The notes under the pieces are model-generated. The model ran no database searches. It was not told the DNA's origin and worked only from the letters and a program-made list of their open reading frames with translations. Positions 15,246-39,021 of a stretch of 39,021 bases of DNA are shown one piece after another. A program made the position numbers and the translations under genes. How positions within the stretch are numbered: position 1 is the stretch's first letter; each line of letters begins with the position of its first letter. The stretch comes from Psammoneis japonica (Eukaryota): NCBI GenBank assembly GCA_008632985.1, contig QPGO01000594.1, forward strand, positions 1 through 39,021, written 5' to 3'.

Positions 15246-15249
15246 ACAA

Positions 15250-15830
15250 GCTGCCTGCCAACCTGAAATCTGCCAACAACAATGGCACACCCCTGTTGCA
15301 GTCCACTCTGTCCCAAGTGAGACATTCGCTGAGTTGCTTTGACTGTCAAAGCAAAAGACTGGTTTCCTCATTGTGAGGCCATCTCTTGGCTTTGTTCATC
15401 TCCACTTTTGATTGTGCATGACAGTTGGAAATGCAAAAGGCCATGACAACATGGCTTGTCACTGCAACTCCCATTCCAGCAACATCTCTCAGATGAACAG
15501 TGACTGTGACATGCCACAGCATTTTGGTGACAACCCCTCATTTGCTTGCAATTTGGTGGAACAAGAGAGTGTCCAGGGGACAGTGGAGGCTGCCATGGTG
15601 GCCATGGAGGAAAGGCATCATGGCAAGGCAACTGCTGCTTGCAAATGGTGCAAGGACATTTCTCAGCACTTGGCTCATCCTGTGTTTCAGGACATCCCTC
15701 ACAGTGGAGGAAAGCATGGCATTTTTGGCATGCTCCCCTGGGAACTGTTGCATGCCTTGCACTTGGCTTTTTGCAAGTGTCTGCTTCAACAATGCAGGAA
15801 ACTTGAACAGACAACAGGGAGAAGGGGGGG
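15250..15830 (+). mobile_element. Plavaka-like DNA transposase fragment (decayed)
   Basis: VGNAKGHDNMACHCNSH...SDCDMP...DNPSFAC...FQDIPHSGGKHGIFGMLPWELLHALHLAFCKCL resembles the IGDxKGHDxLCGxY / CxxCD / FGGxxxGIFGAxPxExLH core I associate with Plavaka-type transposases. Not verified by HMM. Confidence 0.55.
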
Positions 15831-16295
15831 TCATTGATGCTTGAGAGGCATGGAGAGAGACCAGTCAGCAGTTTGACGAGTCATCTGTCTAAAATGCCTT
15901 GCAGAACATGCAGAGTTTGCACTGAAACCTGTGTGGAAACCTTGCATGTGAGAACAAAAAAATGCCAAGAAGAGTGCCGAGCAAATGAACCAAGAGGGCT
16001 GGATGCCAATTGTTTTCCACTGCATGAGATTGCCAATGATTGTAGAACAAAGGCATGTTGACAAAAGAGCACATCTGAACAGGCAGGTGAGAACCATCAC
16101 CACACCATCAGAGAAAGGCAACATCAGCACCAGAGCTTGTGCAGAAAAACATGCAGAGGGTGCGGCCGTGAAGCTGAGGCAGAATTGTGCAATCATCCAA
16201 AAACAGCAGAGCACTGCAATGAAACTGCATTTTTTGAAGACAGCCACGTGCACTTCATTCAAATCAACCAAAAGTGGAGTTAGAAAAACCAATTG

Positions 16296-16665
16296 TGCAG
16301 CGTGCAACTGTTGTGTGCATGTTTGTGATCACACATTGTTTGTGCGTCAATCGCACCACAGTCGCGGATGCACACGAAGGACAGAATGATCACACAGAGT
16401 TCATCGGAAGTCAAAAATTGCAAATGCAATTGACAGACAATGTCGACATCTCATGTGTCAATGGCAATCACATCCGGACAATCTGTTGTCATGAACAACT
16501 TTTTTTTGAAAGGCCTTTTAGTCTGTGGGACCAGCACAAGAGCTTTGGGCCATTGAGAACTCATTGGGAAAAACCAAAAATCACAGAGCAAAACTCAATC
16601 TCACAATTTCCACTTTTTGCACTTTGCCCCACTTTTGTTTGTGCTTGTTCTTTGGGCATGGTGCA
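16296..16665 (+). mobile_element. Solo LTR of the Gypsy family found at 24629-29025
   Basis: Full-length TG...CA match to the 367-bp LTR; flanks ATTG/GTTG look like a degenerate 4-bp TSD. Confidence 0.9.
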
Positions 16666-16739
16666 GTTGTTGTGGATGACACAAAGTTGGACAAGACACT
16701 TGAAGTTTTGCAAAAAAATATTGTGGTTGTCCATTGGCA

Positions 16740-17603
16740 GTGATGCCAACACACCATCTGAGGATGAAATTGGCCATTTGGACTTGGATGAGTGCTCCTG
16801 ACAGGAGGCCTTGGATGAACTGTTTGAATTGACAGAGAAAAGAGTGGTCAAAATGGATGGGAAGGAGTGGTCTGCAAAGAGTGGGAAGGCCCCCAAAACT
16901 CCAAGGAAATGCCAAGTGCATTTTGGCAACTGGGGCAATCCAAGGTTGAGTGTTCCCATTCCACACACTCCAAGAAATGCAGACATGGCTTGGCATGGCT
17001 CTGTCAAGCTCATCCAAAAGCATTTGGAAAATGAGGACAAGGAGATGGAAGAGCAAACAAGGTGCATCATTGATCGCTTGGGCAAGGCAGCGCCAAACAC
17101 ATTCTGCGAGGCTTGGTCCATTCACAAAGAGTGGCTTCATTGAGTGGCAAAAGAGTTGGCCAATGGCAACAAAATGTTGTGCTCAATGGAGGATGAGCAC
17201 CTGCACACAACCCTTGCTGGCATTCATGTGGACACACACAATGCATCCATGCATTGGAGGGGATTGCCAGACTTTCATTGCAACCCAACCGGCAACACAG
17301 ACATTGCCCTCCTTGTGTGTGCTCCAGTCAAGAAAGGTGTGTTGAAACCAATCTTGGTGTTGCAACATGCCAAAACCCATGACTTTTTTCAATGTGGGAT
17401 CCTTTTGTCATGGAGCAATTCATGTGGGGATGCACCTCACTCATTTGAACAGTTTGTTCTTCCGTGCAAGTGAGCCAAACAAATTGCTCAGGCCCAAGCC
17501 AAAGTGGGTTGGCAATCACAGCAAGAATGGACAACATCTGTTCCTTGCTTGGCACACAAAGCAAAACTTGCCGATGGTGGATGCAACGGATGAGGTGCAC
17601 TGA
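16740..17603 (+). pseudogene. Candidate TET/JBP-like 2OG-Fe(II) dioxygenase, decayed (copy A, 30-bp deletion)
   Basis: PRKCQVHFGNWG ... HTTLAGIHVDTHN (HxD) ... FFNVGSFCHGA (distal His) ... GQHLFLAWHTK, with one TGA and one frameshift. The N-terminal part probably extends to ~15850 across the solo LTR. Confidence 0.45.
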
Positions 17604-20600
17604 AAACACAACATGGAACCTTGTTTGTTCATGATGAAGATTGGCAACGGGTGCAATCAAATTTGAAAGAACAGAAATGAGTGCAATGACCTGAGCAGTG
17701 ATGGTTCCAACAAGGATTGGACATGTCTGCACAAAAGGTCAGACAGAATGGAACCAGTTCATGACTGCAGTGAGGCATCCAAAATTTGGCAACTTCAGGA
17801 AAGGTGACAACTGCAATGACAATGCACACAAGGAGCTGCTTTTGCAGACAACAGACAGGGTTGACACAGTTGGAGCATTCCAAAAAGGACACAACTGAGA
17901 CACATCAAACTCCAGCAGATCCAGTGGCCTCATCAAACATGTCATCATTGTCTGCCATGGAATGCTCCAGCTCCTTGGTTGCACGTCACTTGTTTCCATT
18001 CAGTTGCACCTCATTGTCCAGCTTGGAGGGTGGGAAAATGACTTGCTCTGCTGGGAAAAGGTTGCTGTGGTCTGTTCCCTTGGTGCGTGACAGAAAATCA
18101 AGAGTTGGTCCAACCAGGACATCCATTGCAACAGCAGCCAAATCTGCATTTGTGGGGCAAAAGCTGGCTGATTTGATCTTTCAAAAAATTGTTCCACACT
18201 CCCTGTTTTGCAAAGCCCCAGATGTTTCATTTGGCACATTTGTGGGAACAACAGCGCACCAGGCACATTCTTCAATGTCTGAAGAATGCACCTGGCTGAG
18301 TGAGAAATGACTTGCTTCAATCATGAACAAGTTTGTGCGTTCGCAAAATTGCCTCTTTTTCTGTTGGCGATCATTGACATTTTCATTGCCTGACAATTTT
18401 GCTGCGGAGCTTGCACGCAGAATTGCGCGGGCCCAATGTCACATGGATTCCCACCTGCATCTGGAGCATTTCGGACAAAGAGCCTTGACATCGCAGAGGG
18501 CCAGTCCTGGAGAGCCTTGCCTGGGCTGCCCAGCAGGACGAACTTGGCAACCTCCACCATGACCTCCACCATGGCTGCCAGCACCACTGGCGCGACTCGC
18601 ATTGTTGGGGCCAGCAACTTGTTGGCTTGGCTTCTTCCATTTTTTGGGCGGCATGGTTGATGACAGCACAAAATGGAAAAAGGGGTTGATTTAAGTCCTG
18701 GAAATGGGAGTGCAAAGGCAGAAGTGTGCGAAATTTCCAATCTTGACAAGGGCACTTCAATGTCACAAAATCAAACTTGTTGAAAAAATGTGGGATGTCA
18801 ATGACTGAATGATTCATCAAGGTTTTCAAATCATTCAAACCATTGCATTGTGGCAAAAAGATTGAATTTTAAAATGAAATTGTTGCTGAAAAAGAGATGC
18901 TGGTGGGAATCAACTGATGGTGATGCTCACAGTTTGGCCAAAACACGAGTTGTCCCTCCCTCACAAGACACAGAAAATGCAAACTCAAGTTGCAAGCAAT
19001 GCATGAAAATGAGAGTGGCAGTGACAAGTGGCAGCATTGTGGATGGGACAGAATGAAATGCAGGACACAAGGTGAGAAAGAGGAAACAAGTGGCTGGTGC
19101 ATGGAGATCAGGTGCACAACGCAAACAACGGACACTTGTGCACATCTTTGCACACAGAAATCTGCACAGCAACCTGACATGATGCAAAGGAAGATTGGCA
19201 ATGGGGAAGGGCACAAAGGCGAGCCAAAGCAATGCATGAGACAAGATTGCAGGAAACACAAGACACACGCAAAAACTGATCATTGGCACAAAGGTTTGTC
19301 CAGTCGCAGGCAATGCTTTGCCCAACCAAACAGAAGGAACCTGAGATTGATCATTCATCAGCGGCCGCAACACAGTGGTGTTCACTTCCCTTCATCTAGT
19401 TTGTGCCAATTGACGTTGTGTGAGTTTGTCTTTTTTTTTACTCAAGAACAAGCATGTGAGGTGAGAAATTGGGCTTCATTGGAAAACCTCTGCTGCTGTG
19501 ATTTTTTGCACATTCATCACCAACATTCATCCAGTCCATCAAGTTGTGCATGTTTGCACACAAACATCAGAGCCACACTCACCACTCTCAAGGCTGCAGC
19601 ATTCAGATGGGGTGAGATGTGGCTCAACCCCAGAGCCATGATTGCAAACATTTTCAGCTTTGCTGCTGTGCAACGGTGTGACCATGATTCTCACCTGCCC
19701 ACTCCAACTGCTTCTCTCTTTGACACACACTCATTTCATCAAAAGTGAGTGGCATTGAGCCCTTTTGGCTTGTTTGCTCATCATCCTTCTTGGCATTTTT
19801 CTTCCTTGTGTGCAAAATTTCCACACAAGTTTCAGCACAATCTCCACACATTCCGAAAGTCAACTTGCCAAACTGTTGACTGCTCTCCATCCATGCCTCT
19901 CAGGTGTCAGTGACCCAAATTCTGTCCATTGTCAATTTAAGTTCCATGCTTCACATGGTGAACAACCTTCTGTTGTTGTTGCTCTTCAAAGTTTTGTCAT
20001 CCATTTGCTTCTCCCATTGGCTTTTCCTTGCAAGATCTGGCACTGTTTCTGTGTGACACCACTGACAATCTGTGTGTCACTTCTCTGGACTGCTTTTGTC
20101 CTTGCCAATTGGCCCCCAATGCTGCTTCTTTTCTCTGCTGTTCAATCAAATCCTTCACTCTTTGGGGTGAATGTGCTGCTTCTGTTGTGGCCTTTCCAGC
20201 AAGAATGCAAGTCATCCTGTGGCATCATTTGATTGTCATCCTGTTTGCTGCTCCCATCAGCTTTTCTGCACAAGACCTGGCACTGTTTCAACATGCAACA
20301 AATGTTTTTGCCATGACCTGCTTGTCTCACCTTCACGGCTTCTTTTGCAAACTCTTTTGGCAACCTGTCCAAATGCAATTGTCCTTTGCAGCTGTGGTGT
20401 GCATTCTGTGGCTGTCATCAGCAAGCACACAATGAATTCCTCATGTGAGTCATTCCTTTTCAGTTGTTTTGGTGGGGTGTCACCTTCTGGTGGTGCCCAT
20501 TCTGGCCAATCCCATGCAAGCTCCTGCTGCACTGAAGCAGTGCACTGGGAGTGTGGGTCAGCTGGCACCGGCGTGGCTGGCAATGGAGTGACTGCACTTG

Positions 20601-21344
20601 CAATTCAGATTTCTTTTTTTTGGTGCACTGGGGGTGTGGGTCACTTGTTGTCAGAGTTGCAGGATGGAAGCACAGCAGCAGTTTAAATGCAGATTTTGGG
20701 TTTTGCTTTGCTTTGACTGATGCAAGCAGCACAGAGCAGTGTGACTGCCTTGAAGTGCAGATCAGGAAGAGCAGTGTGCAACCCCATGAATGACATGTTG
20801 TGATGTGGCACTTGCTTCACTGTCAATGGAAAGACAGCAAGCAAACCCCTCAACAAGAAGCTTGTGTGCCTCAGGTTGGCAGCAGCAGCAAAGCACATGC
20901 CCCATTCATTCCATCCAATGAGCGGCTCTGACAAAGGCAAGATGCCCGAGTTGTCACTCAGCTGTGCTGAGGCAAAGCAAGGAAGACAAATCAGATGTTG
21001 GCAAAAAGGAACCTCTTCTCCAGTCTCCTGGGATCAGCTGGTCAGGAATTCACTCAAAGTGATGCAGAGATGTTTGTCCAAGCACTGGTCAAAACAAAGA
21101 GAAGAGAGGCAGAGTTGGGTGCAATGCAAACTGACATCTCCAAGAGAGCTGCTTTTGCTGCCAGTTTGTGTCTTGAAACAACAAAAAAAAAATGACAAAA
21201 GACAGAAAAAGAAAGTTCTGTGGTTGCATCAACTCTGTCAATGCCAGCAGCAACAAAGGGAAAAGCAAAAAATGTCTTTGTTCACCCATGGTGTGACCCA
21301 TGTTGTGCCAGTTGCATCATGACAAATGGCTTGTGCACAATCAC

Positions 21345-24060
21345 ATCTGGCACACATCAACCACCTTTGTGTGCATGTTGGTCAGGAGGGGTGCAGAGGT
21401 GCACTTGCAGGGGATTCAATGGGGTCCCTGTGTGCAAGTTCATGGTGCAGTGTCTGCCCTTGGGCAGATCAAAACATGGTTGCAGGCACACACTGTCAAA
21501 GCCATGTGCACCCATGGTGTTTGTTGGGCTGTTCTCAACTTGAGAAATCACAAATTCCCTGAACCAGAGCTGGAAATGCTGTTTGCAGTGTCGAGGTTCC
21601 TTCATTGCAAAACAGTGTGCGTGGACTGCAAGAGTGTCAGAAATTCTTTTGTTTTGTGAGCAAACATTCAACACAGCAGTGTTCTTGATTGTGGCATGCT
21701 TGCACATCAACTTGGGTGTCATCTTGTGCAGCACATGGTGTGGAGCAGCCCGAGTTTGCTCCTTGATGGTCTGCATGCTCTGCTCAACTTCAGGCACATG
21801 GCCTTTCATGTTTGTGGAAATCAGCTCTAGATTTGCACCATCAGCAACTTCTGTCAGAATTTCTTTGAACTTGAGATCACACTCAAAAAAGTCAATCTTG
21901 AGTGGGGTGTGTTGCGCTGTTGGAGAATCATGTCCCGTGCTTTGCACATGTCACTGTGCTTTTTGGACCTCTGCCTCTCACTAAATTGGTGCTTGATTGT
22001 CTTGTCCGTCATGCACAGCAGCTTGACCCCACATGTTTCCACAGTGTCAATGCAGAAGATCATGCCTTTTCTCTGCTTCTCACACATCTCAGGTGGTGTG
22101 AATGCAATGTCATTCCTCTCATGAGAATGATGTGGTGAGTGCTTGGCCTTGCCTTTGTCACATCTGTTGACAGACCCCAAATGGCCACCATCCTGTCCAC
22201 ATCTTGAAGTGCAATGGACAAGTTTTTCACCTGGTCAGATTGTAAAAACAGCTTGAAATCCCTCACATTGGGTGCTCCAGCTTTGCAGCACAGTCTGAGT
22301 GCTTGCTCAGCACTTGGTGCCTCTCTCTTGGTGCATCTTGTTTTTTCACAGCATGCTCACATGTGCCTCACTTTCTTGGAGATCTTTTGCATGGTCAAAG
22401 AACCACTGGCTCAGTGCAAAGACACAGGGGCTGATGTTGTTCACTTTGAATGCTGTGACCTGCTTGCCAGTCTTCTTGTTCAGCAGTTGGAGTCAATCCA
22501 CCACTCAGCTGTCATGAGCAATGCAGCACTTGTTCTTTGCATCCTTTAAACTCAGGATGTTTGCAGTTGTGTTCTGTGATCCCAACTTCATGTCTCCTCA
22601 TCCAGTCATGGTGGCGTGGTGCTTGTCCAAGGCATTCACTCTCACACCAGTGGACAGGTCAACCTTGACCTTTGCTGGATGCATGTCATGCACCAGTCTC
22701 TGGCTTGCTGCCACGCTGAGGGTGAAGCCATTGTCAAGGATGAGTTCATCCAACTTGACACCCACATCAGCTTGGCTCAGTGTTGGAGCTTTTTGGTCTC
22801 ACCATCTCTCTAAACTTGCCATGTGGCTTGCAGCCACAAGGGAGAGAACAGAAAAAAGGAGCAGCAACAGGGGAGCAAGGGATGCAGCAGTGGCAGAGGG
22901 CAGCACCGGGGAGCAAAGGCGCCAAGGGCACAGCCCTTGCAGCCCGCCACAGTGCCCCAGAGGGCAGAGACTGCTGCTGCAGCTTGGTCGCACTGTGTTG
23001 GTGAGAACAGGAGCAAGCCAGCAAGCTGAGAGAGAGGGAGAAGAGGGTGATGGTTGCTCATCACATGTGCTGGCCACCGCAGCAGAAGGGCAGGAGCAAA
23101 AACATCAAGAGCAAGAAGAAAGCTGGGAAAGAGGAAAAGAGGGGCAAGGAGCGCCAGCCCCTGGCTTGCAAGAGGCCAAAGCAGCAGAGATTGTTGAGGG
23201 TTGAAAAAGGGAGAGCAAGAGAAACAGCAAAAAAAGGGCAAGACAACACAAAAGAGGAAAGAGGGAGAGCACCGGGGCAAAAGAGAGGGGGAGCAGAGGC
23301 ACTGGACATGAGAAAGCCGGGCAGATGTGGGCCAAAAAAATCAAAGAAAACAAGGGACAAGCAAAAAGAAGCTGGCTGGCAGCTTTGCATGAACACAGCA
23401 GCAGCCACAGCAGTGCTGCAGCATGGTGCATGCCGCAGCAGCACTGGCGGCACACCTGACTTGAGAGTGTGGCTGTCAAGCACGTGCAGTGAGCTGGCAA
23501 CAGCCCGCAGTGCCAGCAGCAGAGAGCGGAGAAAGCAACCCAGACAGAGCTCAAGGAAGAGAAGGAAAGAAAGGCCATCAACCACTGTCACCATGTTGAT
23601 TGGGTGCAGAAGCCAAAAAGTGAGCACAAGACCTGCAACTCAACCTGAGTTGCAAATGCAAACTTGCCACATTGTTCACAATCATCAGTGTGTCTTGCAC
23701 TGCAACTTTGTCTGTCTGTCCTGTGAAAAACCACCTCTGACCCCAATGTTCCAACACACTCCTTCACACAAGCCATCAATTGATTGGCCTTGTGCACATG
23801 AAGCACAGGAAGACGACACTTAGAAACCATGCCACCCAACACCCCATCAGCTGTTCCATTGATTCCCATGGTCCACACATGATCTGACTCTGCTGACAAA
23901 TTGTTGTTGTCAGAGCAATCCCCTCTCACATGCCCAACCTTGTCGCACTTCCAGCATGCAATCTTCTTCTTGTTTTCTGTGCAGAACTTGTGCGTGTCCA
24001 ACACCTGTGGCACCTCCTTGGCTGATTTAGAGGACAAATGTCCACCCCAAATGTGAGCTG
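21345..24060 (-). mobile_element. Second copy of the Copia-like remnant (interrupted)
   Basis: Same motifs, including CWKCDKVGHVRGDC in ORF 23588-24037 and integrase ORF 21357-21947. Confidence 0.85.
22839..23574. repeat. Purine-rich (G/A-skewed) complex repeat inserted in the Copia remnant
   Basis: Absent from copy 1 at ~14052. Shares blocks with 24062-24628, e.g. GCCAGCAGCAGAGAGCGGAGAA...GAAGAGAAGGAAAGA and GCAAGCCAGCAAGCTGAGA.AGAGGGAGA. Confidence 0.75.
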
Positions 24061-24061
24061 C

Positions 24062-24628
24062 CAGCAGCAGAGAGCGGAGAACTCAACCCAGGCAGAGCTC
24101 AAAGAAGAGAAGGAAAGAGAGAGGTTGAGAGGCAGAGGGTGGACAAACAGAAAGAGTCAAGAGCGCCAGCACCAGCACAGCAACAGGGGGGGGCGACAAA
24201 TGAGCAAAGGACAGGCAAGCGAAGAGAGCCAAGAGCCCCGGCACCAGCGCAAGGGAGAGAGGGGCCAGACAAAGCCAAGGAGAGCAGGGGGGCAGGCAGC
24301 GGCGAAGCCAGAAAAAGCAGGGCGAGACAAGAAGGGGCTGGCCAGCAGTGGCTTTGCATCAATGATGCAGCAGCAGCCACAGCAGCACAAGCCAGCAGAG
24401 GGCAGCAAAAGCGCCAAGAGCGCAGCCTTTGCAGCCCCCCTGGGGGCAGGTTGAAAGGGAGAGAAGGAGGGCGGGCATGCAAGCAGGAAAAGAGAAGGGT
24501 TGAACAAGATCAAAGAGGAAGAGAGGAGACAGGGGCAAAAGCAAGGCTGTGAAGAATGAGCAGCAAGCCAGCAAGCTGAGAAAGAGGGAGAGAAGAGGGT
24601 GGTGGTCACCCACAGCGCTGCGGCGCAG
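24062..24628. repeat. Second purine-rich repeat block, target of the Gypsy insertion (probably resumes at 29026-29085)
   Basis: Permuted homology to 22839-23574; strongly T-poor top strand. Confidence 0.7.
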
Positions 24629-24995
24629 TGCAGCATGCGACTGTTATATGCACATTCATAATTACACATTATTTATATGTCAATCGTACCACAGTCGTGG
24701 ATGCGTACGAAGGACAGAACGATCACACAGAGTTGATCGGATGTCGAAAATTACAAATACGATCGATTGACGATGTTGACATCTTACGTGTCAATGGCAA
24801 TCGTATCCGGACAATCTGTTGTCACAAATATATTCTCCGAAAGGCCTTTTGTCTGTAGAAGCAGTGCAGAAGCTTTAGGCCATTGAGAACTCGTTCGGAG
24901 AAACCAAAAATCACAGAGCAAAATTCAATCTCATAATTTCCACTTTTCGTACACTATTCTACTTTCGTTTACACTCGTTCTTCGAGCATAGTGCA
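24629..24995 (+). repeat. 5' LTR (367 bp), TpA largely retained
   Basis: Hand alignment to 28658-29025; contains 23 TpA. Confidence 0.95.
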
Positions 24996-27900
24996 TTGTG
25001 TGTGCACACCACAGAAGGTAAAAAGCACGAAAAATCAAAATTTTAACTAATGTGCCTTTGTAAATTCTTCTATGAACAGGGACGAATCGCATCAGTTCTG
25101 CTGGAATCAATTTCCGAGTGGAAGAAGCTCAATCCGAGCAGCACCTCAAGATGGAACGCTGTTTTTCGTCTAGCAAATGACAAGATTCGTTCTAATACAA
25201 TCCATTCCAAGTGTCTCAGGACCAAGGACTCTACAAGAGCACAGCATTGTCGAAACATCCACACCAAGTCATGGTTGGGTAGAATTTCAAGTCCCGAGTC
25301 GATCAGATCCGAGAAACACATCTACTTTGCAAGGAGAGACTATTGGAGAGTTTTTTGAGACCGAATCGACGAGCCTCCAGTCCAAAGAGCAAGAGGGAAC
25401 CGTTCAAAAGCACCTCAAGTGTCTCACAACTCATGTCCTCCGAGGAAATGCACTTCAGAATCAGAGTTGTTATTTTCAAGACGATCTGAAGAAACCAGAG
25501 CTGCTTGACAGCAAGAAAGCCTCTGTTAGACCCAAGAGGTCAATGAAGAGAGTCTATACGACCCTTCAATGGATTCTAAGTTGAATCTAGCGGGAAACCG
25601 AGCCGTGAGCTGTCAGCTGTCACTCGCACCGCAAGGATGGCAGCATCAGCCCACTGTCCAAAACATTGGATTGTTGGATCATGCCCTTGACGAGATGATT
25701 GAGGTTTGAGTCGTCCAGAGGTCAGCGAGGACGTCCATGACAAAAAAACACATCAAATCAGGCTCTGATGGCGCTGTTGATTCCAAAATCAAAAAGGTTC
25801 CAAATTTGGTTCCCAAAATGGTCTCCCACATGGCACCTGAACAATCCAAAGTGAATGCAAGGTCCAATCTTTGAAAAAAGAACACCTGCATCACGGATTG
25901 AAGCTGTTCTGAAAATGAACCAGCAAAAGAGTGCAAGGGTGACTCTGAAAGAGACCCAAAAATGCGCCGTTCAAATGGCAATCGCACGCGGTCGAGTCGC
26001 GACAACGAAAATGCCGCTCGCAAAAAAAGAGTTGAACGTCATGATTGATCAGGCGGTTCAAAAAATGCTCAAAGCGAGTTCCTCGAACAAAGAAAAAGAG
26101 CATGAGGGCAAAGAATCAGATTCTGATGCCCTCAGTGAAGAAAAACACCAATTTGATCGGATGATCCAGAGTGAATCCGAAGAACAATTTGGGTCCATTC
26201 ACGAATTGTTTGCTCTGCTGGATGTTAGGAAGCCTGGAAAAAAGGCAGAAATAATTCACACCAGTCCAGGAGTCATCATTTGTGTGAACAATTCCTTGGG
26301 AAAGGAGAGAAAAAAGCATCTGCGTGTTCCTGTCGATGACGGAACATCGTCAACCACAATTTTGCGCAAATTCGTGCGAAAGTTGAGAACACAAGAATCC
26401 GCCACCAAAAACTTGGGAAACCAAGGGTGAGCTCTTTACGACTGACAGCAAACACCGAATTCAGTTCTCACCATTCGAATTTAAGACATGCTGATGTTCA
26501 AACAGCACATGTTGAAAACACCAAATCTTCGTCAGGTTCAAATGATGTGATCATGGGACGCGACTTGATGTCCAGTCTTGGAGTCATGTTGGACTGCGCA
26601 AATGAAGAAATCAAATGGGAAGAAGCAATTGCCCTGTGAAGAATGTTCGTGCACTCTTCAATGCCGATGTTTTCAAGCTGAAAACCGATCACATGAAAAA
26701 TGTGACGCCGTGAACAGAGTTGACAACGGAGCCAATGGTCCTCGACTCACATCATCGCGCCATCGATCCCAATCAAGTGACAACTGCGGCGATGCATCTG
26801 ACCCAAATGAACACAACCAACTCAATCTTCTTCTCAAGAGGTTGAAATCTTTTTGAAAAGTTCCTCAGACGAGTGCATGGGAAGAACCAGTGGATCTCAT
26901 CATGGAAAATCTGACGCGATTCCACGACGCGTGAGAACCTTCTCCTGTCACAGTCTTTGGAGGCATCCAATCAAAAGGAGTTTGACCTGTTGTAAAAGAT
27001 TGAAGTCTTAAAAATGAAACTGCTCTGAATGAGTCACTCTGAGACTCATTGTCCAAAGAAAACAGGTCAAGTTTGACCGCGTCCGACACTCAGAAGCTCA
27101 GCAAAAGGTTCACACACGCAGTGCATCCTTTGCCCAATGTTCAGGAAATGCTGTTGAAGCAAGAACGTTTCATGTGTGTAATCCATTTAATTCAAACATG
27201 GAATGCCACCATGTCAAACAAAAAAAAGCACGTCGTGCTCACACAAAAATCATGTCATGGGGAGAAAATGAGTGCTGTCGATTTCCAATGAGAATCTGCA
27301 GAGCCCCAGACATTTTCACACAACACATGAGCGAACTCATGACAGGTTTGAAGTTGTCAGAATGACTGCATGTGATCGTTTGTGCCTGACAAAAGCAACT
27401 TCAAAATGTCGCCTGCACAAGTGACAGCTCAGTGCGGCATTCAAACGACTGGAACAGTCGCTCAGAAGGTTGACAACAAATTTCTTTCACTGTTTAACTT
27501 GAAATAAACTGTCAATGCTTCCATGCGCAACGATGTGCAATCGATCACAAAGAAAATGGAGGCGATTCAAGCAATCGCAACACGAGAAAAACGCAAAGAA
27601 CACTGCGACATCTCGTTGTCATGCGTCACTGCCATCGAGACATGCAGTCTCAATGTCCCACCGTTAAAACAGGATAAAGACATTTCCCTCCAAATTGTCG
27701 GACGCGACATGTCATACGAACACTTTTCGTGGAGGCGAGCGAGATCGAAAAATGCTCATGTCATGAGGACAAAATCGCCTTGTTTTTAAAAAGGACGGTT
27801 AGAAAAAAACTCTGTGATAGATTGGTGTGGTGTTACAGTGTCCACTTCACACTGGCAAAAAGACAATCTCACAACACCCGTGCGGTTGCATTGTACAATG

Positions 27901-28657
27901 TGCGAGGCAAGACATTGAAACACACATCATGTCGACACACGAGATGTGCCAAAGATCTAGAAAAAGAAAAGAAAAATGGACATTTGTCCACCAGTGCACG
28001 AAAGCAGTGCCTTCGGAATGACAAAATGACACCGGTGCCTGTGTCAAAAAGAAACGTCCAAACAACAATTCAAATCCAACTGACAGATGGTTGAAGCACA
28101 AAAAATCCACAATGGAGTTCACAACCATCACAGGACTGATTGTCAAGACGAAATGGTCACATCCTTGACCATCGTCAATTGTCACCCATGAAACGGGCAG
28201 TGCAGCAGAGCAATGTGGCATGTGAAGCAAGCCCGCCAAACCACACGAAATCCACAAGTGCAAGAAGTGGTCTAAGTGAACGCCAATTAAGTGCGTACAT
28301 CAAGCACTGGGCAAAATGCTGTGTGCAATCGACACCATGAAAGAACAGCAGGACAGTTGGTCCTTGTGTCCACATGAACAAAACAATGTCAGAGAGAATG
28401 CTCGATGCAACACTGCAGCACATTTGCACACATGTGCACACAGAGAGGGTCACACACACACACAAAGCATGAGACAAATCACGACACTCTCGAAAGACAT
28501 TTGGAAATTGAAATGGTCCTGTGCTGGCCTGCACAAAACAACAACAGTCATTGCCAATGGCACAATGCAGTTAACGTGGAGACATTGTTGGCACTGTCAA
28601 TGTCCGCCAAATCACTCCACTTGACGAACAACTCCAATGTGCAATTAGGGAGGCGAA

Positions 28658-29025
28658 TGCAGTGTGCGACTGTTGTGTGCATGTTCACAATTGTGTGTCA
28701 TTCATGTGTCAATCGCACCACAGTCGTGGATGCGCACAAAGGACAGAACGATCACACAGAGTTGATCGGATGTCAAAAATTACAAATGCAATCGATTGAC
28801 GATGTTGACATCTTGCGCGTCAATGGCAATCGCATCCGGACAATCTGTTGTCACAAACACATTCTCCGAAAGGCCTTTTGTCTGTGGAAGCAGTGCAGAA
28901 AGCTTTGGGCCATTGAGAACTCGTTCGGAGAAACCAAAAATCACAGAGCAAAATTCAATCTCATAATTTCCACTTTTCGTGCACTGTTCCACTTTCGTTT
29001 GCACTCGTTCTTCAAGCACAGTGCA
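28658..29025 (+). repeat. 3' LTR (368 bp), TpA nearly eliminated
   Basis: Preceded by the PPT, followed by the TSD; contains 2 TpA. Confidence 0.95.
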
Positions 29026-29959: not shown

Positions 29960-31099
29960 CAATGGAAAGACAGCAAGCAAACCCCTCAACAAGAAGCTTG
30001 TGTGCCTCAGGTTGGCAGCAGCAGCAAAGCACATGCCCCATTCATTCCATCCAATGAGCGGCTCTGACAAAGGCAAGATGCCCGAGTTGTCACTCAGCTG
30101 TGCTGAGGCAAAGCAAGGAAGACAAATCAGATGTTGGTAAAAAGGAACCTCTTCTCCAGTCTCCTGGGATCAGCTGGTCAGGAATTCACTCAAAGTGATG
30201 CAGAGATGTTTGTCCAAGCACTGGTCAAAACAAAGAGAAGAGAGGCAGAGTTGGGTGCAATGCAAGCTGGCAGCTCCAAGAGAGCTGCTTTTGCTGCCAG
30301 TTTGTGTCTTGAAACAACAAAAAAAAATGACAAAAGACAGAAAAAGAAAGTTCTGTGGTTGCATCAACTCTGTCAATGCCAGCAGCAACAAAGGGAAAAG
30401 CAAAAAAAATCTTTGTTCACCCATGGTGTGACCCATGTTGTGCCAGTTGCATCATGACAAATGGCTGGTGCACAATCACATCTGGCACACATCAACCACC
30501 TTTGTGTGCATGTTGGTCAGGAGGGGTGCAGAGGTGCACTTGCAGGGATTCAATGGGGTCCCTGTGTGCAAGTTCATGGTGCAGTGTCTGCCCTTGGGCA
30601 GATCAAAACATGGTTGCAGGCACACACTGTCAAAGCCATGTGCATCCATGGTGTTTGTTGGGCTGTTCTCAACTTGAGAAATGTTGTTCACTTTGAATGC
30701 TGTGTCCTGTTTGCCAGTCTTCTTGTTCAGCAGTTGGAGTCAATCCACCACTCAGCTGTCATGAGCAATGCAGCACTTGTTCTTTGCATCCTTTAAACTC
30801 AGGATGTTTGCAGCTGTGTTCTGTGATCCAAACTTCATGTCTCCTCATCCAGTCATGGTGGCGTGGTGCTTGTCCAAGGCACACCAGTGGACAGGTCAGC
30901 CTTGACCTTTGCTGGATGCATGTCATGCACCAGTCTCTGGCTTGCTGCCACGCTGAGGGTGAAGCCATTGTCAAGGATGAGTTCATCCAACTTGACACCC
31001 ACATCGGCTTGGCTCAGTGTTGGAGCTTTTTGGTCTCACCATCTCTCTAAACTTGCCGTGTGGCTTGCAGCCACATTGTCATTGCCATCAACCACTGTC

Positions 31100-31685
31100 A
31101 CCTGCCTGCCAACCTGAAATCTGCCAACAACAATGGCACACCCCTGTTGCAGTCCACTCTGTCCCAAGTGAGACATTTGCTGAGTTGCTTCAACTGTCAA
31201 AGCAAAAGACTGGTTTCCTCATTGTGAGGCCATTTCTTGGCTTTGTTCATCTCCACTTTTGATTGTGCGTGACAGTCGGAAATGCAAAAGGCCATGATGA
31301 CATGGCTTGTCACTGCAACTCCCATTCCAGCAACATCTCTCAGATGAACAGTGACTGTGACATGCCACAGCATTTTGGTGACAACCCCTCATTTGCTTGC
31401 AATTTGGTGGAACAAGAGAATGTCCAGGGGACAGTGGAGGCTGCCATGGTGGCCATGGAGGAAAGGCATCATGGCAAGGCAACTGCTGCTTGCAAATGGT
31501 GCAAGGACATTTCTCAGCACTTGGCTCATCCTGTGTTTCAGGACATCCCTCATGGTGGAGGAAAGCATGGCATTTTTGGCATGCTCCCCTGGGAACTGTT
31601 GCATGCCTTGCACTTGGCTTTTTGCAAGTGTCTGCTTCAACAATGCAGGAAACTTGAACAGACAACAGGGAGAAGGGGGGGTCAT
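31100..31685 (+). mobile_element. Second copy of the Plavaka-like transposase fragment
   Basis: ORF 31263-31688 is nearly identical to ORF 15412-15837. Confidence 0.55.
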
Positions 31686-32147
31686 TGATGCTTGAGAGGC
31701 ATGGAGAGAGACCAGTCGGCAGTTTGATGAGTCATCTGTCTAAAAATGCCTTGCAGAACATGCAGAGTTTGCACTGAAACCTGTGTGGAAACCTTGCACA
31801 TGAGAACAAAAAATGCCAAGAAGAGTGCCGAGCAAATGAGCCAACAGGGCTTGACGCCAATTGTTTTCCACTGCATGAGATTGCCAATGATTGTAGAACA
31901 AAGGCATGTTGACAAAAGAGCACATCTGAACAGGCAGGTGAGAACCATCACCACACCATCAGAGAAAAGGCAACATCAGCACCAGAGCTTGTGCAGAAAA
32001 ACATGCAGAGGGTGTGGCCGTGAAGCTGAGGCAGAATTGTGCAATCATCCAAAAACAGCAGAGCACTGCAATGAAACTGCATTTTTTGAAGACAACCACG
32101 TGCATTTCATTCAAATCAACCAAAAGTGGAGTCAGAAAAACCAATTG

Positions 32148-32515
32148 TGCAGCGTGCAACTGTTGTGTGCATGTTTGTGATCACACATTGTTTGTGTGTC
32201 AATTGCACCACAGTCGCGGATGCGCACGAAGGACAGAATGATCACACAGAGTTCATCGGAAGTCAAAAATTGCAAATGCAATTGACAGACAATGTCGACA
32301 TCTCATGTGTCAATGGCAATCACATCCGGACAATCTGTTGTCACGAACAACTTTTTCGAAAGGCCTTTTAGTCTGTGGGACCAGCACAAGAGCTTTGGAC
32401 CATTGAGAACTCATTCGGAGAAACCAAAAATCACAGAGCAAAACTCAATCTCACAATTTCCACTTTTTGCACTTTGCCCCACTTTTGTTTGTGCTTGTTC
32501 TTTGAGCATGGTGCA
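32148..32515 (+). mobile_element. Solo LTR, duplicate of 16296-16665 within repeat copy 3
   Basis: Same insertion site and sequence; flanks ATTG/ACTG. Confidence 0.9.
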
Positions 32516-32584
32516 ACTGTTGTGGATGACACAAAGTTGGACAAGACACTTGAAGTTTTGCAAAAAAATTGTGGTTGTCCATTG

Positions 32585-33481
32585 CCAGTGATGCCAACAC
32601 ACCATCTGAGGATGAAACTGGCCATTTGGACTTGCATGAGTGCTCCTGACAGGAGGCCTTGGATGAACTGTTTGAATTGACAGAGAAAAGAGTGGTCAAA
32701 ATGGATGGGAAGGAGTGGTCTGCAAAGAGTGGGAAGGCCCCCAAAACTTCAAGGAAATGCCAAGTGCATTTTGGCAACTGGGGCAATCCAAGGTTGAGTG
32801 TTCCCATTCCACACACTCCAAGAAATGCAGACATGGCTTGGCATGGCTCTGTCAGGCTCATCCAAAAGCATTTGGAAAATGAGGACAAGGAGATGGAAGA
32901 GCAAAAACAAGGTGCATCATTGATTGCTTGGGCAAGGCAGTGCCAAACACATTCTGCAAGGCTTGGTCCATTCACAAAGAGTGGCTTCATTGAGTGGCAA
33001 AAGAGTTGGCCAATGGCAACAAAATGTTGTGCTCAATGGAGGATGAGCACCTGCACACAACCCTTGCCATCAACAGTTGCTGTGGTGGTGGGGTTGCTGG
33101 CATTCATGTGGACACACACAATGCATCCATGCATTGGAGGGGATTGCCAGACTTTCATTGCAACCCAACCGGCAATGCAGACATTGCCCTCCTTGTGTGT
33201 GCTCCAGTCAAGAAAGGTGTGTTGAAGCCAATCTTGGTGTTGCAACATGCCAAAACCATGACTTTTTTCAATGCAGGATCCTTTTGTCATGGAGCAATTC
33301 ATGTGGGATGCACCTCACTCATTTGAACAGTTTGTTCTTCTGTGCAAGTGAGTCAAACAAATTGCTCAGGCCCAAGCCAAAGTGGGTTGGCAATCACAGC
33401 AAGAATGGACAACATCTGTTCCTTGCTTGGCACACAAAGCAAAACTTGCCGATGGTGGATGCAACGGATGAGGTGCACTGA
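32585..33481 (+). pseudogene. Candidate TET/JBP-like 2OG-Fe(II) dioxygenase, decayed (copy B, more complete)
   Basis: HTTLAINSCCGGGVAGIHVDTHN ... FFNAGSFCHGA ... GQHLFLAWHTK, matching a TxxxN-(x)n-HxD ... H ... R-x5-aromatic layout once Q->R and C/H->Y are restored. Confidence 0.5.
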
Positions 33482-33859
33482 AAACACAACATGGAACCTT
33501 GTTTGTTCATGATGAAGATTGGCAATGGGTGCAATCAAATTTGAAAGAACAGAAATGAGTGCAATGACCTGAGCAGCGATGGTTCCGACAAGGATTGGAC
33601 ATGTCTGCACAAAAGGTCAGACAGAATGGAACCAGTTCATGACTGCAGTGAGGCATCCAAAATTTGGCAACTTCAGGAAAGGTGACAACTGCAATGACAA
33701 TGCACACAAGGAGCTGCTTTTGCAGACAACAGACAGGGTTGACACAGTTGGAACATTCCAAAAAGGACACAACTGAGACACATCAAACTCCAGCAGATCC
33801 GTTGGCCTCATCAAACATGTCATCATTGTCTGCCATAGAATGCTCCAGCTCCTTGGTTG

Positions 33860-35606
33860 CATGTCACTTGTTTCCATTCAGTTGCACCTCATTGTCCAGC
33901 TCGGAGGGTGGGAAAATGACTTGCTCCACTGGGAAAAGGTTGCTGTGGTCTGTTCCCTTAGTGCGTGACAGAAAATCAAGAGTTGGTCCAACCAGGACAT
34001 CCATTGCAACAGCAGCCAAATCTGCATTTGTGGGGCAAAAGCTGGCTGATTTGGTTTCTCCACCTCCAAATTGTTGCTTCAGGAAAGAAAGGCCCATGTT
34101 CACTGAAAGTGCCATCCAATGCACGGTTGGAGGTCATGACAATGTTGCGCCACTTCATGAAATGTGCAATGTCTGGGGCAGCATGCTTCTGCTTGGATTT
34201 AGCCAAAGGGACATTGGCAATGAAGTGATTGTGCAAACGTGCACATTTTTGAACAACACCATCATTGGCTGGATCGCTGCTTTTGGGTGCAGCTGGCATG
34301 TCATCCATGTTGCACAGGCTGTCAATCAGATCATCCTCATGATGCCAGAACACATTGGCAAGGAGAAACTTTGCAGTGATCAACTGGGTGAGTGCCTCCT
34401 GAGCGGCACTTTCCATGCAGTGGGTCACAGCTGGCTCATTGTTCTTGGCGTAAAAGTTGGTGACTTTGTCGTGGCTCTGACTGCAGTCTTTCATTGGCAT
34501 TCAAGTGCAACAAAGGCTGACAGCAGCAGCAAGAGGCAAGAAAAAATCTGCCCACAGAGATGGGGCCAACCATCCAAAGTGGCAGGTGGTGCAGAGACAG
34601 GCTGCATTGTGATGACACGCAACAGCACTGTTTTCCTCAACTGTTGACACAGTGCCAGCAGGAGGGGCAGTGAACAAGTCAACAGGAGTGTGCTGGCCTG
34701 CAAAAAAGACAAATGAACCACAAACCCATCATGGTCACACAGAGAAGATTCAAAGAAGAGGGGACAAGGATTTGCATCACCTGCATCACCATGATGGGAG
34801 CCACAGACTCCACAAAGGACTGTGGGAAACAAGGCACTGCCGGCCTTTTTGGGTGGCAGAGTGTGGTTGATTTGTGTTCTGAGACAGGAAGCAAAGGTGT
34901 TTTGTTCTTAATTCATGAAGTTGAGGGCCAAGGGGCCAACCTTCTCCCAAAACTTTTGACAAACTTCAGGTTTGTTGAATTCATTGTCAGACCTGTCCTT
35001 GTCATTTTTTGGGTTTTTTGGGAAGACATGTTCCCAAACCATCAAGGCAAAGGGACATTTGGAGTTTGCACCGGCATCCAGGAGTGGATGGCAAATCACA
35101 GTGTTGCCAATCTCTTGTTTGGATGGAAAACCCAGAGAGAACAGAGCAGCATGACCCACCTTTGAGTTGCCCACTTTCTTCACAAAGTTGGTCTCCAAAT
35201 TTGTCATTTTGCTGGCATGAAAGGTCTGTTTCTGAGCTTTCTAGAGAGAGGCAACGGCCTTGTTGGCAGTGACAATTTTTGCACCACAGGCGTTGTGCTT
35301 TTGCTGCAGTTGCTTGCACATCTTTTTGTTGTGGTTTTTGCATGGGCTGCACATCCTCCAGCAAAACAAAAGCCACACTCTGCAATCATTGCCAGACATT
35401 TGGTTTCACTTTGTCATGCTGCTTGAGAGAAATTCAACATCTTCTTTTTGAATTTGAGGGGAACAGTTCTCAGACACATCATCAGAGGAGTCGGCTTCTT
35501 CATTGATGGAGGCTGCAGCAGCGGTGGCAGCTGCTGGGTCATTGACTGGTGGAGCAGCTGTGGATGACATGTTCCAGCCCTGGGTGGAAGCTTGTGGTGC
35601 TGACAT
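33860..35606 (-). pseudogene. Decayed long ORF of unknown product, possibly an accessory gene of the Plavaka-like element
   Basis: Protein-like segments MSAPQASTQ...EEADSSDD (35406-35606), MTNLETNFVKK...FWEKVGPLALNFMN (34908-35207) and ORF 33976-34500 line up with stops and frameshifts; mostly deleted in copy 1. Confidence 0.35.
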
Positions 35607-36924
35607 GTGACATGATCATTTTTGTCATCTGTTGCATGTTTCACACTCACATTTCTGCATGTGATCTTTCAAAAAATTGTTCCACACTCCCTGTTTTGCA
35701 AAGCCCCAGATGTTTCATTTGGCACATTTGTGGGAACAACAATGCACCAGGCACATCCTTCAATGTCTGAAGAATGCACCTGGCTGAGTGAGAAATGACT
35801 TGCTTCAATCATGAACAAGTTTGTGCGTTCTCAAAATTGCCTCTTTTTCTGTTGGCGATCATTGACATTTTCATTGCCTGACAATTTTGCTGCGGAGCTT
35901 GCACGCAGAATTGCATGGGCCCAATGTCACATGGATTCCCACCTGCATCTGGAGCATGTCGGACAAAGAGCCTTGACATCACAGAGGGCCAGTCCTGGAG
36001 AGCCTTGCCTGGGCTGCCCAGAAGGACGAACTTGGCAACCTCCACCATGACCTCCACCATGGCTGCCAGCACCACTGGCACGACTGGCATTGTTGGGGCC
36101 AGCAACTTGTTGGTTTGGCTTCTTCCATTTTTTGGGCGGCATGGTTGATGACAGCACAAAATGGAAAAAGGGGTTGATTTAAGTCCTGGAAATGGGAGTG
36201 CAAAGGCAGAAGTGTGTGAAATTCCCAATCTTGACAAGGGCACTTAATGTCATAAAATCAAACTTGTTGAACAAATGTGGGATGTCAATGACTGAATGAT
36301 TCATCAAGGTTTTCAAATCATTCAAACCATTGCATTGTGGCAAAAAGATTGAATTTTAAAATGAAATTGTTGCTGAGAAAGAGATGCTGGTGGGAATCAA
36401 CTGATGGTGATGCTCACAGTTTGGCCAAAAAACGAGTTGTCCCCCTCACAAGACACAGAAAATGCAAACTCAAGTTGCAAGCAATGCATGAAAATGTGAG
36501 CGGCAGTGACAAGTGGCGGCATTGTGGATGGGACAGAATGAAATGCAGGACACAAGGTGAGAAAGAGGAAACAAGTGGCTGGTGCATGGAGATCAGGGCA
36601 CAACGCAAACAACGGACACTTGTGCACATCTTTGCACACAGAAATCTGCACAGCAACCTGACATGATGCAAAGGAAGATTGGCAATGGGGAAGGGCACAA
36701 AGGCGAGCCAAAGCAATGCATGAGACGAGATTGCAGGAAACACAAGACACACGCAAAAACTGATCATTGGCACAAAGGTTTGTCCAGTCGCAGGCAATGC
36801 TTTGCCCAGCCAACAGAAGGAACCTGAGATTGATCATTCATCAGCGGCCGCAACACAGTGGTGTTCACTTCCCTTCATCTGGTTTGTGCCAATTGACGTT
36901 GTGTGAGTTTGTCTTTTTTTTACT

Positions 36925-39021
36925 CAAGAACAAGCATGTGAGGTGAGAAATTGGGCTTCATTGAAAACCTCTGCTGCTGTGATTTTGCACATTCATCACC
37001 AACATTCATCCAGTCCATCAAGTTGTGCATGTTTGCACACAAACGTCAGAGCCACACTCACCACTCTCAAGGCTGCAGCATTCAGATAGGGTGAGATGTG
37101 GCTCAACCCCAGAGCCATGATTGCAAACATTTTCAGCTTTGCTGCTGTGCAACGGTGTGACCATGATTCTCACCTGCCCACTCCAACTGCTTCTCTCTTT
37201 GACACACACTCATTTCATCAAAAGTGAGTGGCATTGAGCCCTTTTGGCTTGTTTGCTCATCATCCTTCTTGGCATTTTTCTTCCTTGTGTGCAAAATTTC
37301 CACACAAGTTTCAGCACAATCTCCACACATTCCGAAAGTCAACTTGCCAAACTGTTGACTGCTCTCCATCCATGCCTCTCAGGTGTCAGTGACCCAAATT
37401 CTGTCCATTGTCAATTTAAGTTCCATGCTTCACATGGTGAACAACCTTCTGTTGTTGTTGCTCTTCAAAGTTTTGTCATCCATTTGCTTCTCCCATTGGC
37501 TTTTCCTTGCAAGATCTGGCACTGTTTCTGTGTGACACCACTGACAATCTGTGTGTCACTTCTCTGGACTGCTTTTGTCCTTGCCAATTGGCCCCCAATG
37601 CTGCTTCTTTTCCTGCTGTTCAATCAAATCCTTCACTCTTGGGGTGAATGGCTGCTTCTGTTGTGGCCTTTCCAGCAAGAATGCAAGTCATCCTGTGGCA
37701 TCATTTGATTGTCATCCTGTTTGCTGCTCCCATCAGCTTTTCTGCACAAGACCTGGCACTGTTTCAACATGCAACAAATGTTTTCTTGTCTCACCTTCAC
37801 GGCTTCTTTTGCAAACTCTTTTAACAACCTGTCCAAATGCAATTGTCCTTTGCAGTTGTGGTGTGCATTCCATGGCTGTCATCAGCAAGCACACAATGAA
37901 TTCCTCATGTGAGTCATTCCTTTTCAGTTGTTTTGGTGAGGTATCACCTTCTGGTGGTGCCCATTCTGGCCAATCCCATGCAAGCTCCTGCTGCACTGAA
38001 GCAGTGCACTGGGAGTGTGGGTCAGCTGGCACCGGCGTGGCTGGCAATGGAGTGACTGCAATTGCAATTCAGATTTCTTTTTTTTTTGGTTCACTGGGGG
38101 TGTGGGTTGCTTGTTGTCAGAGTTGCAGGATGGAAGCAAGCAGCAGTTTAAGTGCAGATTTTGGGTTTTGCTTTGCTTTGACTGATGCAAGCAGCACAAA
38201 GCAGTGTGACTGCCTTGAAGTGCAGATCAGGAAGAGCAGTGTGCAACCCCACGAATGACATGTTGTGATGTGGCACTTGCTTCACTGTCAATGGAAAGAC
38301 AGCAAGCAAACCCCTCAACAAGAAGCTGTGTGCCTCAGGTTGCAGCAGCAGCAAAGCACATGCCCCATTCATTCCATCCAATGAGCGGCTCTGACAAAGG
38401 CAAGATGCCCGAGTTGTCACTCAGCTGTGCTGAGGCAAAGCAAGGAAGACAAATCAGATGTTGGTAAAAAGGAACCTCTTCTCCAGTCTCCTGGGATCAG
38501 CTGGTCAGGAATTCACTCAAAGTGATGCAGAGATGTTTGTCCAAGCACTGGTCAAAACAAAGAGAAGAGAGGCAGAGTTGGGTGCAATGCAAACTGGCAT
38601 CTCCAAGAGAGCTGCTTTTGCTGCCAGTTTGTGTCTTGAAACAACAAAAAAAAATGACAAAAGACAGAAAAAGAAAGTTCTGTGGTTGCATCAACTCTGT
38701 CAATGCCAGCAGCAACAAAGGGAAAAGCAAAAAAAATCTTTGTTCACCCATGGTGTGACCCATGTTGTGCCAGTTGCATCGTGACAAATGGCTTGTGCAC
38801 AATCACATCTGGCACACATCAACCACCTTTGTGTGCATGTTGGTCAGGAGGGGTGCAGAGGTGCACTTGCAGGGATTCAATGGGGTCCCTGTGTGCAAGT
38901 TCATGGTGCAGTGTCTGCCCTTGGGCAGATCAAAACATGGTTGCAGGCACACACTGTCAAAGCCATGTGCATCCATGGTGTTTGTTGGGCTGTTCTCAAC
39001 TGAGAAATGTTGTTCACTTTG
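36925..39021 (+). repeat. Segmental repeat unit, copy 4 (runs off window)
   Basis: Collinear with 19443-21548 and ends in the same deletion junction CTTGAGAAATGTTGTTCACTTTG seen in copy 3. Confidence 0.93.

Follow-up and report, generated by a model that had tools for sequence, protein, structure and literature searches.

Gene remnants in a duplicated segment

Contig QPGO01000594.1 was analysed over its whole length of 39,021 nucleotides (nt), hereafter the window. Two broken genes lie close together on its plus strand, a fragment of a Plavaka-type transposase and, downstream of it, a pseudogene whose product would be a TET-like dioxygenase. The pair is present twice. In copy 1 the transposase fragment is found at 15124-16134 and the dioxygenase pseudogene at 16802-17732. 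In copy 2 the transposase fragment occupies 31053-31985 and is followed by a middle part (32650-32905), a core (32907-33308) and a C-terminal part (33308-33559) of the dioxygenase gene.

The homologues were collected with a read-through query, frame 0 of 31101-34055, in which 21 TGA codons were kept as X and which spans both the transposase piece and the piece with the His-x-Asp (HxD) motif of the dioxygenase. A phmmer search of this query against 1.84 billion representative proteins gives 92 proteins at E ≤ 1e-3, 43 at E ≤ 1e-10 and three at E ≤ 1e-30. Most of them (77) align to residues 12-232 of the query (nt about 31135-31800), with a best E value of 2.5e-37. The Pfam family PF18759 (Plavaka) is found in 22 of the 28 upstream-side homologues scanned, in 21 of them above the curated cut-off, and the other six carry nothing relevant. 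The window aligns within the Pfam-matched Plavaka region of these proteins. Against a profile of 23 long Plavaka homologues the window has one match per copy, of 137.8 and 134.3 bits; by tblastn the match is longer and covers 15124-16134 (copy 1) and 31053-31859 (copy 2). The core of the copy-2 match is at 31134-31685 and contains an in-frame TGA at 31260-31262; the end at 31985 is extrapolated from the copy-1 match, which reaches 16134. On the upstream side copy 1 reaches about 130 nt farther than copy 2. Judged by these homologues, the upstream remnant is a scrap of a transposase of the EnSpm/CACTA-related Plavaka type. About 130-300 of roughly 1050 residues survive. A complete transposase with its catalytic core is absent from the window by the profile of long homologues, and the transposase translation of the window itself has no Pfam match. 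In the protein atlas the transposase piece falls among unnamed eukaryotic clusters, with scores of 0.93-0.94.

The downstream remnant is recognised by a set of short peptides, which in copy 2 are spread over three frames of the plus strand: RKCQVHFGNWG (32752-32784), HTTLAINS (33054-33077), IHVDTHNA (33102-33125), FCHGAIHVG (33282-33308) and GQHLFLAWHTK (33407-33439). The same peptides are found in copy 1 at 16904, 17222, 17403 and 17529, with 30 nt (INSCCGGGVA) missing. All peptides that a preliminary description of the window had read from the DNA are on the plus strand where it had placed them, in both copies, and the similarity of the region to its homologues goes far beyond chance. The middle part of copy 2 (frame 1) contains RKCQVHFGNWG, which aligns with the R....G[FY].DS segment of the dioxygenase family, and residues 59-269 of the homologue P0064 align by tblastn on the copy-1 equivalent of this part. 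The predicted beta-helix core (frame 0) overlaps the open reading frame (ORF) 32994-33323, which is scored at 105.8 bits by a profile of 16 dioxygenase homologues. Its motifs are His-x-Asp at 33105-33113, Asn at 33120-33122, Pro-Asp-x-His at 33147-33158 and His-Gly-x-x-His at 33288-33302. The C-terminal part (frame 2) follows a frameshift at about 33308 and carries the strand GQHLFLAWHTK.

Copy 1, located by tblastn and by the same profile (68.6 and 41.5 bits for its pieces), is broken at other places. Its frame is continuous from 16802 to about 17380, if a TGA shared with copy 2 is read through, and then shifts; 17346-17600 is one frame through the HG..H motif and the strand in which the family Arg is replaced by His. 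Copy 2 changes frame near 32905 and at about 33308, whereas copy 1 is continuous at both places. The lesions of copy 1 itself are the frameshift near 17380 and the 30-nt deletion just before HxD. The TGA at 32991-32993 is common to both copies. Likewise, the conserved Arg of the family is His in both (CAT, 33413-33415), one CpG-decay step from CGT. Both dioxygenase copies are pseudogenes.

Positions 1-100 of the family profile have no match anywhere in the window. The place where the first about 100 residues should be is occupied by a repeat of about 370 bp, which self-comparison of the window locates between the two gene remnants at 16295-16674 in copy 1 and 32147-32515 in copy 2 (no strand assigned). 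It is probably an insertion that took away the start of the dioxygenase gene. The copy-2 repeat is 82-86% identical to 24628-24995 and 28705-29025.

Both copies lie in DNA of unusual composition. From about 7 kb to the end of the window the observed/expected ratio (o/e) of TpA is 0.00-0.08 in most kilobases and that of CpG is about 0.07-0.3, with CpA/TpG at about 1.6-2.2; TpC is not depleted. Each 2.9-kb copy retains five TpA and 25-26 CpG, and the counts of CA (353-356) and TG (327-333) are similar. The window covers 58 conserved columns of the dioxygenase family, of which 35 are identical and 23 different. A single step back from CA/TG to TA or CG reverts nine of these 23 differences, while shuffles give 2.5 ± 1.4 and none of 2000 reaches nine. 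The decay-type replacements include Tyr to His, Tyr to Cys, Arg to His and Thr to Met. The idea of undoing the decay to read the protein, on which the preliminary description was built, is borne out by this comparison.

The two copies are themselves related by duplication. The segments 15251-18175 and 31102-34053 are 97.4% identical, a 3.4-kb unit is present at 10681-14053, 19443-22838 and 36925-39006, and 18168-21548 matches 35655-39008. By these matches, copy 1 and copy 2 are the same segment of a unit of about 7.6 kb, duplicated after most of the conversion. The copies differ by 61 mismatches, of which 22 are of the CG<>CA/TG type and three of the TA<>CA/TG type. CpG decay, at least, therefore went on after the duplication.

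Dioxygenase family and its predicted fold

The other 15 of the 92 read-through matches align to residues 561-747 (nt about 32780-33340), with a best E value of 1.7e-10. These HxD-side homologues are 119-668 residues long, and none of them matches a Pfam family at E ≤ 0.01. A word-indexed search with the HxD part gave no match, and one with the 15-sequence profile gave five matches, one of them new. The protein atlas has no usable match to the HxD ORF. A Pfam search of 114 of the 169 window ORFs of at least 90 amino acids gave only three sub-threshold chance matches at E ≤ 0.01. By sequence comparison, the dioxygenase of the window belongs to a family that is undetected by any Pfam model.

The homologues align well with one another. 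H245 and D260 (numbering of homologue P0052) are invariant, and H231, D247, H262, Q291 and F299 are at least 90% conserved. The consensus is H.D..NA....GG.PD.H..LT.NPNIGFLV..P......P.LV.Q.....TFFY..S..HG.VHIGTY; R.F...Y[TS][KR]...P comes about 40 residues further on. The family also keeps HG.VH and R-x-[FYW]...Y-[TS]-[KR], and the window aligns throughout. H38, D40 and H99 of the window ORF fall in columns that are at least 90% conserved, and the window keeps HVD (33105-33113) and the distal His (33288-33290). The proposed HxD...H iron ligands are in this way conserved among the homologues, with an invariant H245, a D247 that is at least 90% conserved and a conserved HG.VH. The upstream 'TxxIN' motif, which had been compared with JBP and phage TET proteins, does not hold; it is not conserved, and what the homologues have at this place is a His that hardly varies, together with a predicted strand. 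The terminal Arg strand stands in part. Arg is found in 11 of the 13 homologues with a residue in this column, and it is on the strand 347-353 in the model of P0052, but the proposed change of Gln to Arg was placed one residue off, as the family Arg aligns with the His encoded by CAT. This Arg would serve in the binding of 2-oxoglutarate (2OG).

Intact members of the family exist. The Tyr content is 0-0.7% in P0056 and P0045 and 1.6-5.7% in the other 14 of the 16 homologues. A normal Tyr content means that these 14 are encoded in DNA that keeps TpA. One homologue cluster has 18 members, on contigs of up to 14 kb. Longer contigs that encode intact homologues are those of the P0076 cluster (up to 14 kb), of P0081 (10.5 kb) and of P0087 (7.6 kb).

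The fold was predicted with AlphaFold2 for the intact homologue P0052, not for the window fragment, from a 16-sequence alignment. The model has a mean predicted local distance difference test (pLDDT) of 84.1 and a predicted template modelling score of 0.84. A strand at 233-239 precedes H245-x-D247, HG.VH is on a strand at 306-310 and the Arg motif on the strand at 347-353, with helices between. In this model, HxD, distal His and Arg follow one another as they should in a 2OG oxygenase. A Foldseek comparison with the PDB gives TET-family proteins for 22 of the 22 entries listed to rank 25 (E 3.9e-7 to 8.8e-4); among the matches listed, nine are CcTet, five TET2, five CMD1 and three NgTET1. The top 16 entries are all TET-family chains, with alignments of 214-250 residues in which the N-terminal part is included, and the model aligns to TET across residues 33-365. 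TraH, FTO, ALKBH1 and AlkB come next, at about 1e-3 and above. CcTet, NgTET1 and TET2 are clearly ahead of these generic 2OG oxygenases; for CMD1 the lead is not clear. In addition, the best match in the viral library BFVD is annotated as '2OGFeDO JBP1/TET oxygenase domain-containing protein' (E 6.8e-8). The model supports a double-stranded beta-helix Fe(II)/2OG enzyme with a fold closest to TET/JBP (CcTet, NgTET1, TET2). The enzymes form a new and divergent family, TET/JBP-like by predicted fold, which is filed outside PF12851.

Origin of the pair

The presumed benefit of a TET/JBP enzyme to the mobile DNA that carries it is the removal of silencing marks. We consider it fairly probable that the TET-like dioxygenase and the Plavaka transposase of the window are the cargo and the transposase of one dead DNA transposon. 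The two remnants are on the same strand in both copies, separated by about 0.7-1 kb, or about 300 nt without the inserted repeat. There is also precedent for such a pair. As described in the available part of one report, TET/JBP genes are found in fungal DNA transposons of various kinds, PlavakaB and Helitrons among them (PMC12730594), and the accessible text on giant Plavaka elements of red algae describes an accessory gene for a 2OG oxygenase without a domain match (bioRxiv 10.1101/2025.02.11.637652). By analogy, on the basis of position and precedent, the gene most likely has a past as the cargo of a transposon, where it would have worked against silencing. Transposase and cargo gene would once have been in one DNA transposon, like the TET-carrying fungal transposons. 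The dioxygenase, of roughly 400 residues, would have oxidised methylated bases on the DNA of the element, most likely 5-methylcytosine (5mC) and possibly N6-methyladenine (6mA) or thymine, and this oxidation would have served to resist methylation-based silencing. The element would have been defeated all the same, mutated at nearly every CpG and TpA and broken, and the broken element would later have been copied passively within the segmental repeat of about 7.6 kb.

Several observations weigh against this history, and many of them would fit a second one, in which the adjacency is accidental. The TET-like gene would then come from another mobile element (for example a helicase-bearing, Helitron-like one) or from the host, and would have ended up next to a Plavaka remnant among other broken repeats, before the whole cluster was duplicated. 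What is left of the transposase is small: its profile of 1056 positions matches the window at 439-564 only, once per copy and nowhere else. The repeat of about 370 bp separates the two remnants. No homologue among the 92 spans both parts. An inverted-repeat search for termini over 30600-36000 gave seven weak pairs, none of them convincing in CA/TG-rich DNA. To be noted, the preliminary description counted a Plavaka-like core on the same strand within about 1 kb in both copies. The core and its position stand, with 77 homologues and PF18759 in 22 of 28, but both copies come from one segmental duplication and are therefore not independent observations, so that the linkage rests on a single arrangement.

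Related loci were examined on five metagenome contigs (L001-L005) of 1.3-3.7 kb, of which only L002 has about 0.6 kb upstream of the gene. A Plavaka match is found on none of the five, all of which are short. In L001, L003 and L005 the dioxygenase gene is tail-to-tail with a minus-strand ORF (L001:589-1395, L003:656-1261, L005:423-2012) bearing a Pif1-type helicase motif, ..TTGHKLQGKS....SRV..L.GL. The L003 ORF is 44-46% identical to those of L001 and L005, which are 96-98% identical to each other. All 12 matches of this ORF to PDB sequences at E ≤ 1 are of Pif1/AAA type, with a best E of 0.02. Pfam gave nothing for it at E ≤ 0.01 and one UvrD_C_2 match at E 0.025. The Pfam search of the neighbour ORFs of the five loci gave nothing at E ≤ 0.01 beyond one chance-level P10 match. 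This helicase hint is weak, but it points to elements of several types as possible carriers of the family, as with the fungal genes, which according to the available part of the report move between transposon superfamilies, Helitrons included (PMC12730594). The five loci have no flank homology with the window outside the dioxygenase core, and no related loci were found by alignment in the viral contig and prokaryotic genome collections, where P0078 was also tried on genome contigs. On L004, downstream of the least-converted dioxygenase copy, two protein-like ORFs of 413 and 202 amino acids are found on the minus strand (L004:912-2150 and L004:2154-2759); they have no Pfam family.

Against an accidental neighbourhood stand the shared strand, the close spacing once the inserted repeat is subtracted and the published precedent for Plavaka with a TET or 2OG-oxygenase cargo. 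Furthermore, the helicase evidence is weak by its Pfam scores, and the metagenome contigs are too short to rule out an upstream transposase. We regard chance adjacency as unlikely, although far from negligible.

A further group of results bears on the enzyme itself and also counts against the cargo history. Pfam on the 18 window ORFs around the remnants gave nothing useful and no Tet_JBP at E ≤ 10. The 16 homologues (the 15 and one more) have neither a Tet_JBP nor any 2OG-oxygenase Pfam match even at E ≤ 10, and the family profile has no match to PDB sequences at E ≤ 10. The own 110-residue ORF of the window, modelled from 21 sequences, gave a poor model (pLDDT 65.6, below 50 at residues 1-42), and Foldseek with this model gave nothing at E ≤ 0.001 and weak cupin/AlkB matches at E 0.4-1, a result that is uninformative rather than negative. 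With no sequence-level tie to TET/JBP, the protein could share the broad fold of these 2OG oxygenases and yet work on something other than DNA bases, as would an AlkB/FTO-like repair enzyme or RNA demethylase, or a protein hydroxylase. The structural matches argue otherwise: TET-family chains fill all 16 top entries and every one of the 22 listed to rank 25, their long alignments include the N-terminal part, and the best viral match is again a JBP1/TET oxygenase. We consider a function away from DNA bases improbable. Of the TET/JBP identity proposed earlier, the part that survives is the fold, closest to TET/JBP in the P0052 model; membership in PF12851 does not, as none of the 16 homologues matches it at E ≤ 10.

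Base conversion and relation to known systems

The converted DNA adjoins ordinary sequence. A eukaryotic ribosomal DNA (rDNA) unit on the minus strand opens the window, with the 5' part of the large-subunit gene at 1-1455 and the small-subunit (SSU) gene at 2675-4478; a masked run of 900 N is at 1483-2382. The rRNA genes place the source only as a eukaryote. The rDNA and its spacer (1-6500) have a normal dinucleotide composition, and the converted repeats begin about 2.5 kb past the SSU gene. Over 10681-39021 the repeats are laid out as A-[insert]-B-C-A ... A'-B-[1.6-kb insert 34053-35655]-C-A, where A is 3.4 kb, B is 2.9 kb (the dioxygenase/transposase segment) and C is 1.3 kb. This layout is either a tandem segmental repeat or a pair of long direct repeats around B-C. 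Pfam gave no match for units A and C. A pair of direct repeats, each about 375 bp long (24622-24995 and 28652-29025, 90% identical), brackets 3.66 kb in an LTR-like (long terminal repeat) layout. It is this repeat of which further copies lie within both dioxygenase/transposase units. The DNA between them is less converted, with CpG o/e of 0.56-0.88, and the ORFs of this element (24622-29025) have no Pfam match.

The conversion is not confined to the window. TpA o/e is 0.03-0.05 on the related loci L001, L002 and L005, 0.24 on L003 and 0.57 on L004. Together with the low-Tyr homologues, these values indicate that the conversion also struck other copies of the family in environmental DNA. On the coding strand the changes are bidirectional, with both TAY to CAY and TAY to TGY, which argues for a process at the DNA level. 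As an explanation of the TpA loss, editing of a retroelement RNA of the ADAR type (adenosine deaminase acting on RNA) was discarded, since the changes are bidirectional and the CA and TG counts similar. A limited literature search on the joint loss of TpA and CpG in transposons found nothing relevant.

Oxidised thymine mispairs with G. It is conceivable, though very improbable, that the target of the family is a base at TpA, modified or open to modification (thymine or 6mA), besides or instead of 5mC at CpG. The family would then be a cause or a counter-measure in an undescribed mutational genome defence that hits two dinucleotides and resembles repeat-induced point mutation. As far as the available text goes, dinoflagellate TET/JBP homologues make 5-hydroxymethyluracil (5hmU) that is enriched in repeats, and earlier studies quoted in that text name TA and TC as favoured sites (PMC11572971). 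CcTet, the closest solved relative, oxidises 5mC and 6mA according to the part available of its report (PMC12730594). The least probable of the alternatives makes the gene part of a mutator or of the silencing machinery, not of counter-defence, with an enzyme that produces the lesion behind the TpA loss, for example by turning thymine at TpA into 5hmU or 5-formyluracil that mispairs with G. The near absence of TpA and the doubling of CpA/TpG across 7-39 kb, the same composition at three of the five related loci, the two of 16 homologues with hardly any Tyr, the bidirectional TAY changes and the dinoflagellate 5hmU would all suit such an enzyme, but TpC is not depleted, 14 of the 16 homologues are encoded in DNA that keeps TpA, and the window copies are dead while the flanking repeats are equally converted.

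As the copies of the window are dead, they are a fossil record and not a working system. Systems of this kind have been described before, whereas the family is new, as are its sequence features and the composition of the DNA around it. The arrangement has so far been described mainly in fungi, and here it is found with a different, previously unlabelled enzyme family. The locus adds a separate, Pfam-invisible enzyme family with intact members in environmental assemblies, which is open to expression and assay. The family is located in DNA from which CpG and TpA have both been lost, an unusual combination. It thus offers a definite candidate enzyme, with definite substrates (5mC, T and 6mA in CpG and TpA), for tests of the chemistry that underlies the conversion.

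TET2 carries the motifs H-x-D-x-x-N and R-x-S-x-x-x-Y-x-H. The family of the window resembles it in its H-x-D-x-x-N and R-x-x-x-x-x-Y-[TS]-[KR], and differs from the catalytic domains of human TET2 and Naegleria NgTET1 in the lack of a Cys-rich domain or low-complexity insert and of any HMMER-detectable sequence similarity. With CcTet from Coprinopsis cinerea and the fungal AG, PU and PE types, as far as these are described in the available part of the report (PMC12730594), it shares the single-domain organisation of about 400 residues and the H-x-D...H triad. The PE type is likewise recognisable by structure only. The identity to CcTet and the fungal types is 10-13%, without a Pfam Tet_JBP match in the window family, and the host of the family is not shown to be fungal. 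The hallmark of the PE type is H-x-E, whereas the family of the window has H-x-D. CcTet has G331/D337 after H326/D328, while the window family has an invariant P-D-x-H 13-17 residues past H-x-D, and in its model the distal His and the Arg strand are separated by about 40 residues that include helices.

The setting can be compared in the same way. The upstream-part homologues of the window carry PF18759, the mark of Plavaka (CMCT/EnSpm-related), although the window keeps only about 130-300 transposase residues. The TET-carrying PlavakaB elements have termini CATCA..TGATG with duplications of 2-3 bp in the accessible part of their description (PMC12730594), and these termini are not found in the window. 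Fungal transposon-borne TET/JBP genes in the same source lie, like the gene of the window, beside a cut-and-paste transposase, and Plavaka is among the known carriers. Outside fungi the closest counterpart is PAG3 of the red-algal giant Plavaka elements, compared here by its description in the part available (bioRxiv 10.1101/2025.02.11.637652). PAG3 has an N-terminal ParB-like domain, for which the P0052 model, aligned to TET over residues 33-365, has no room; like the putative cargo of the window, it is a Plavaka-borne 2OG oxygenase that escapes Pfam.

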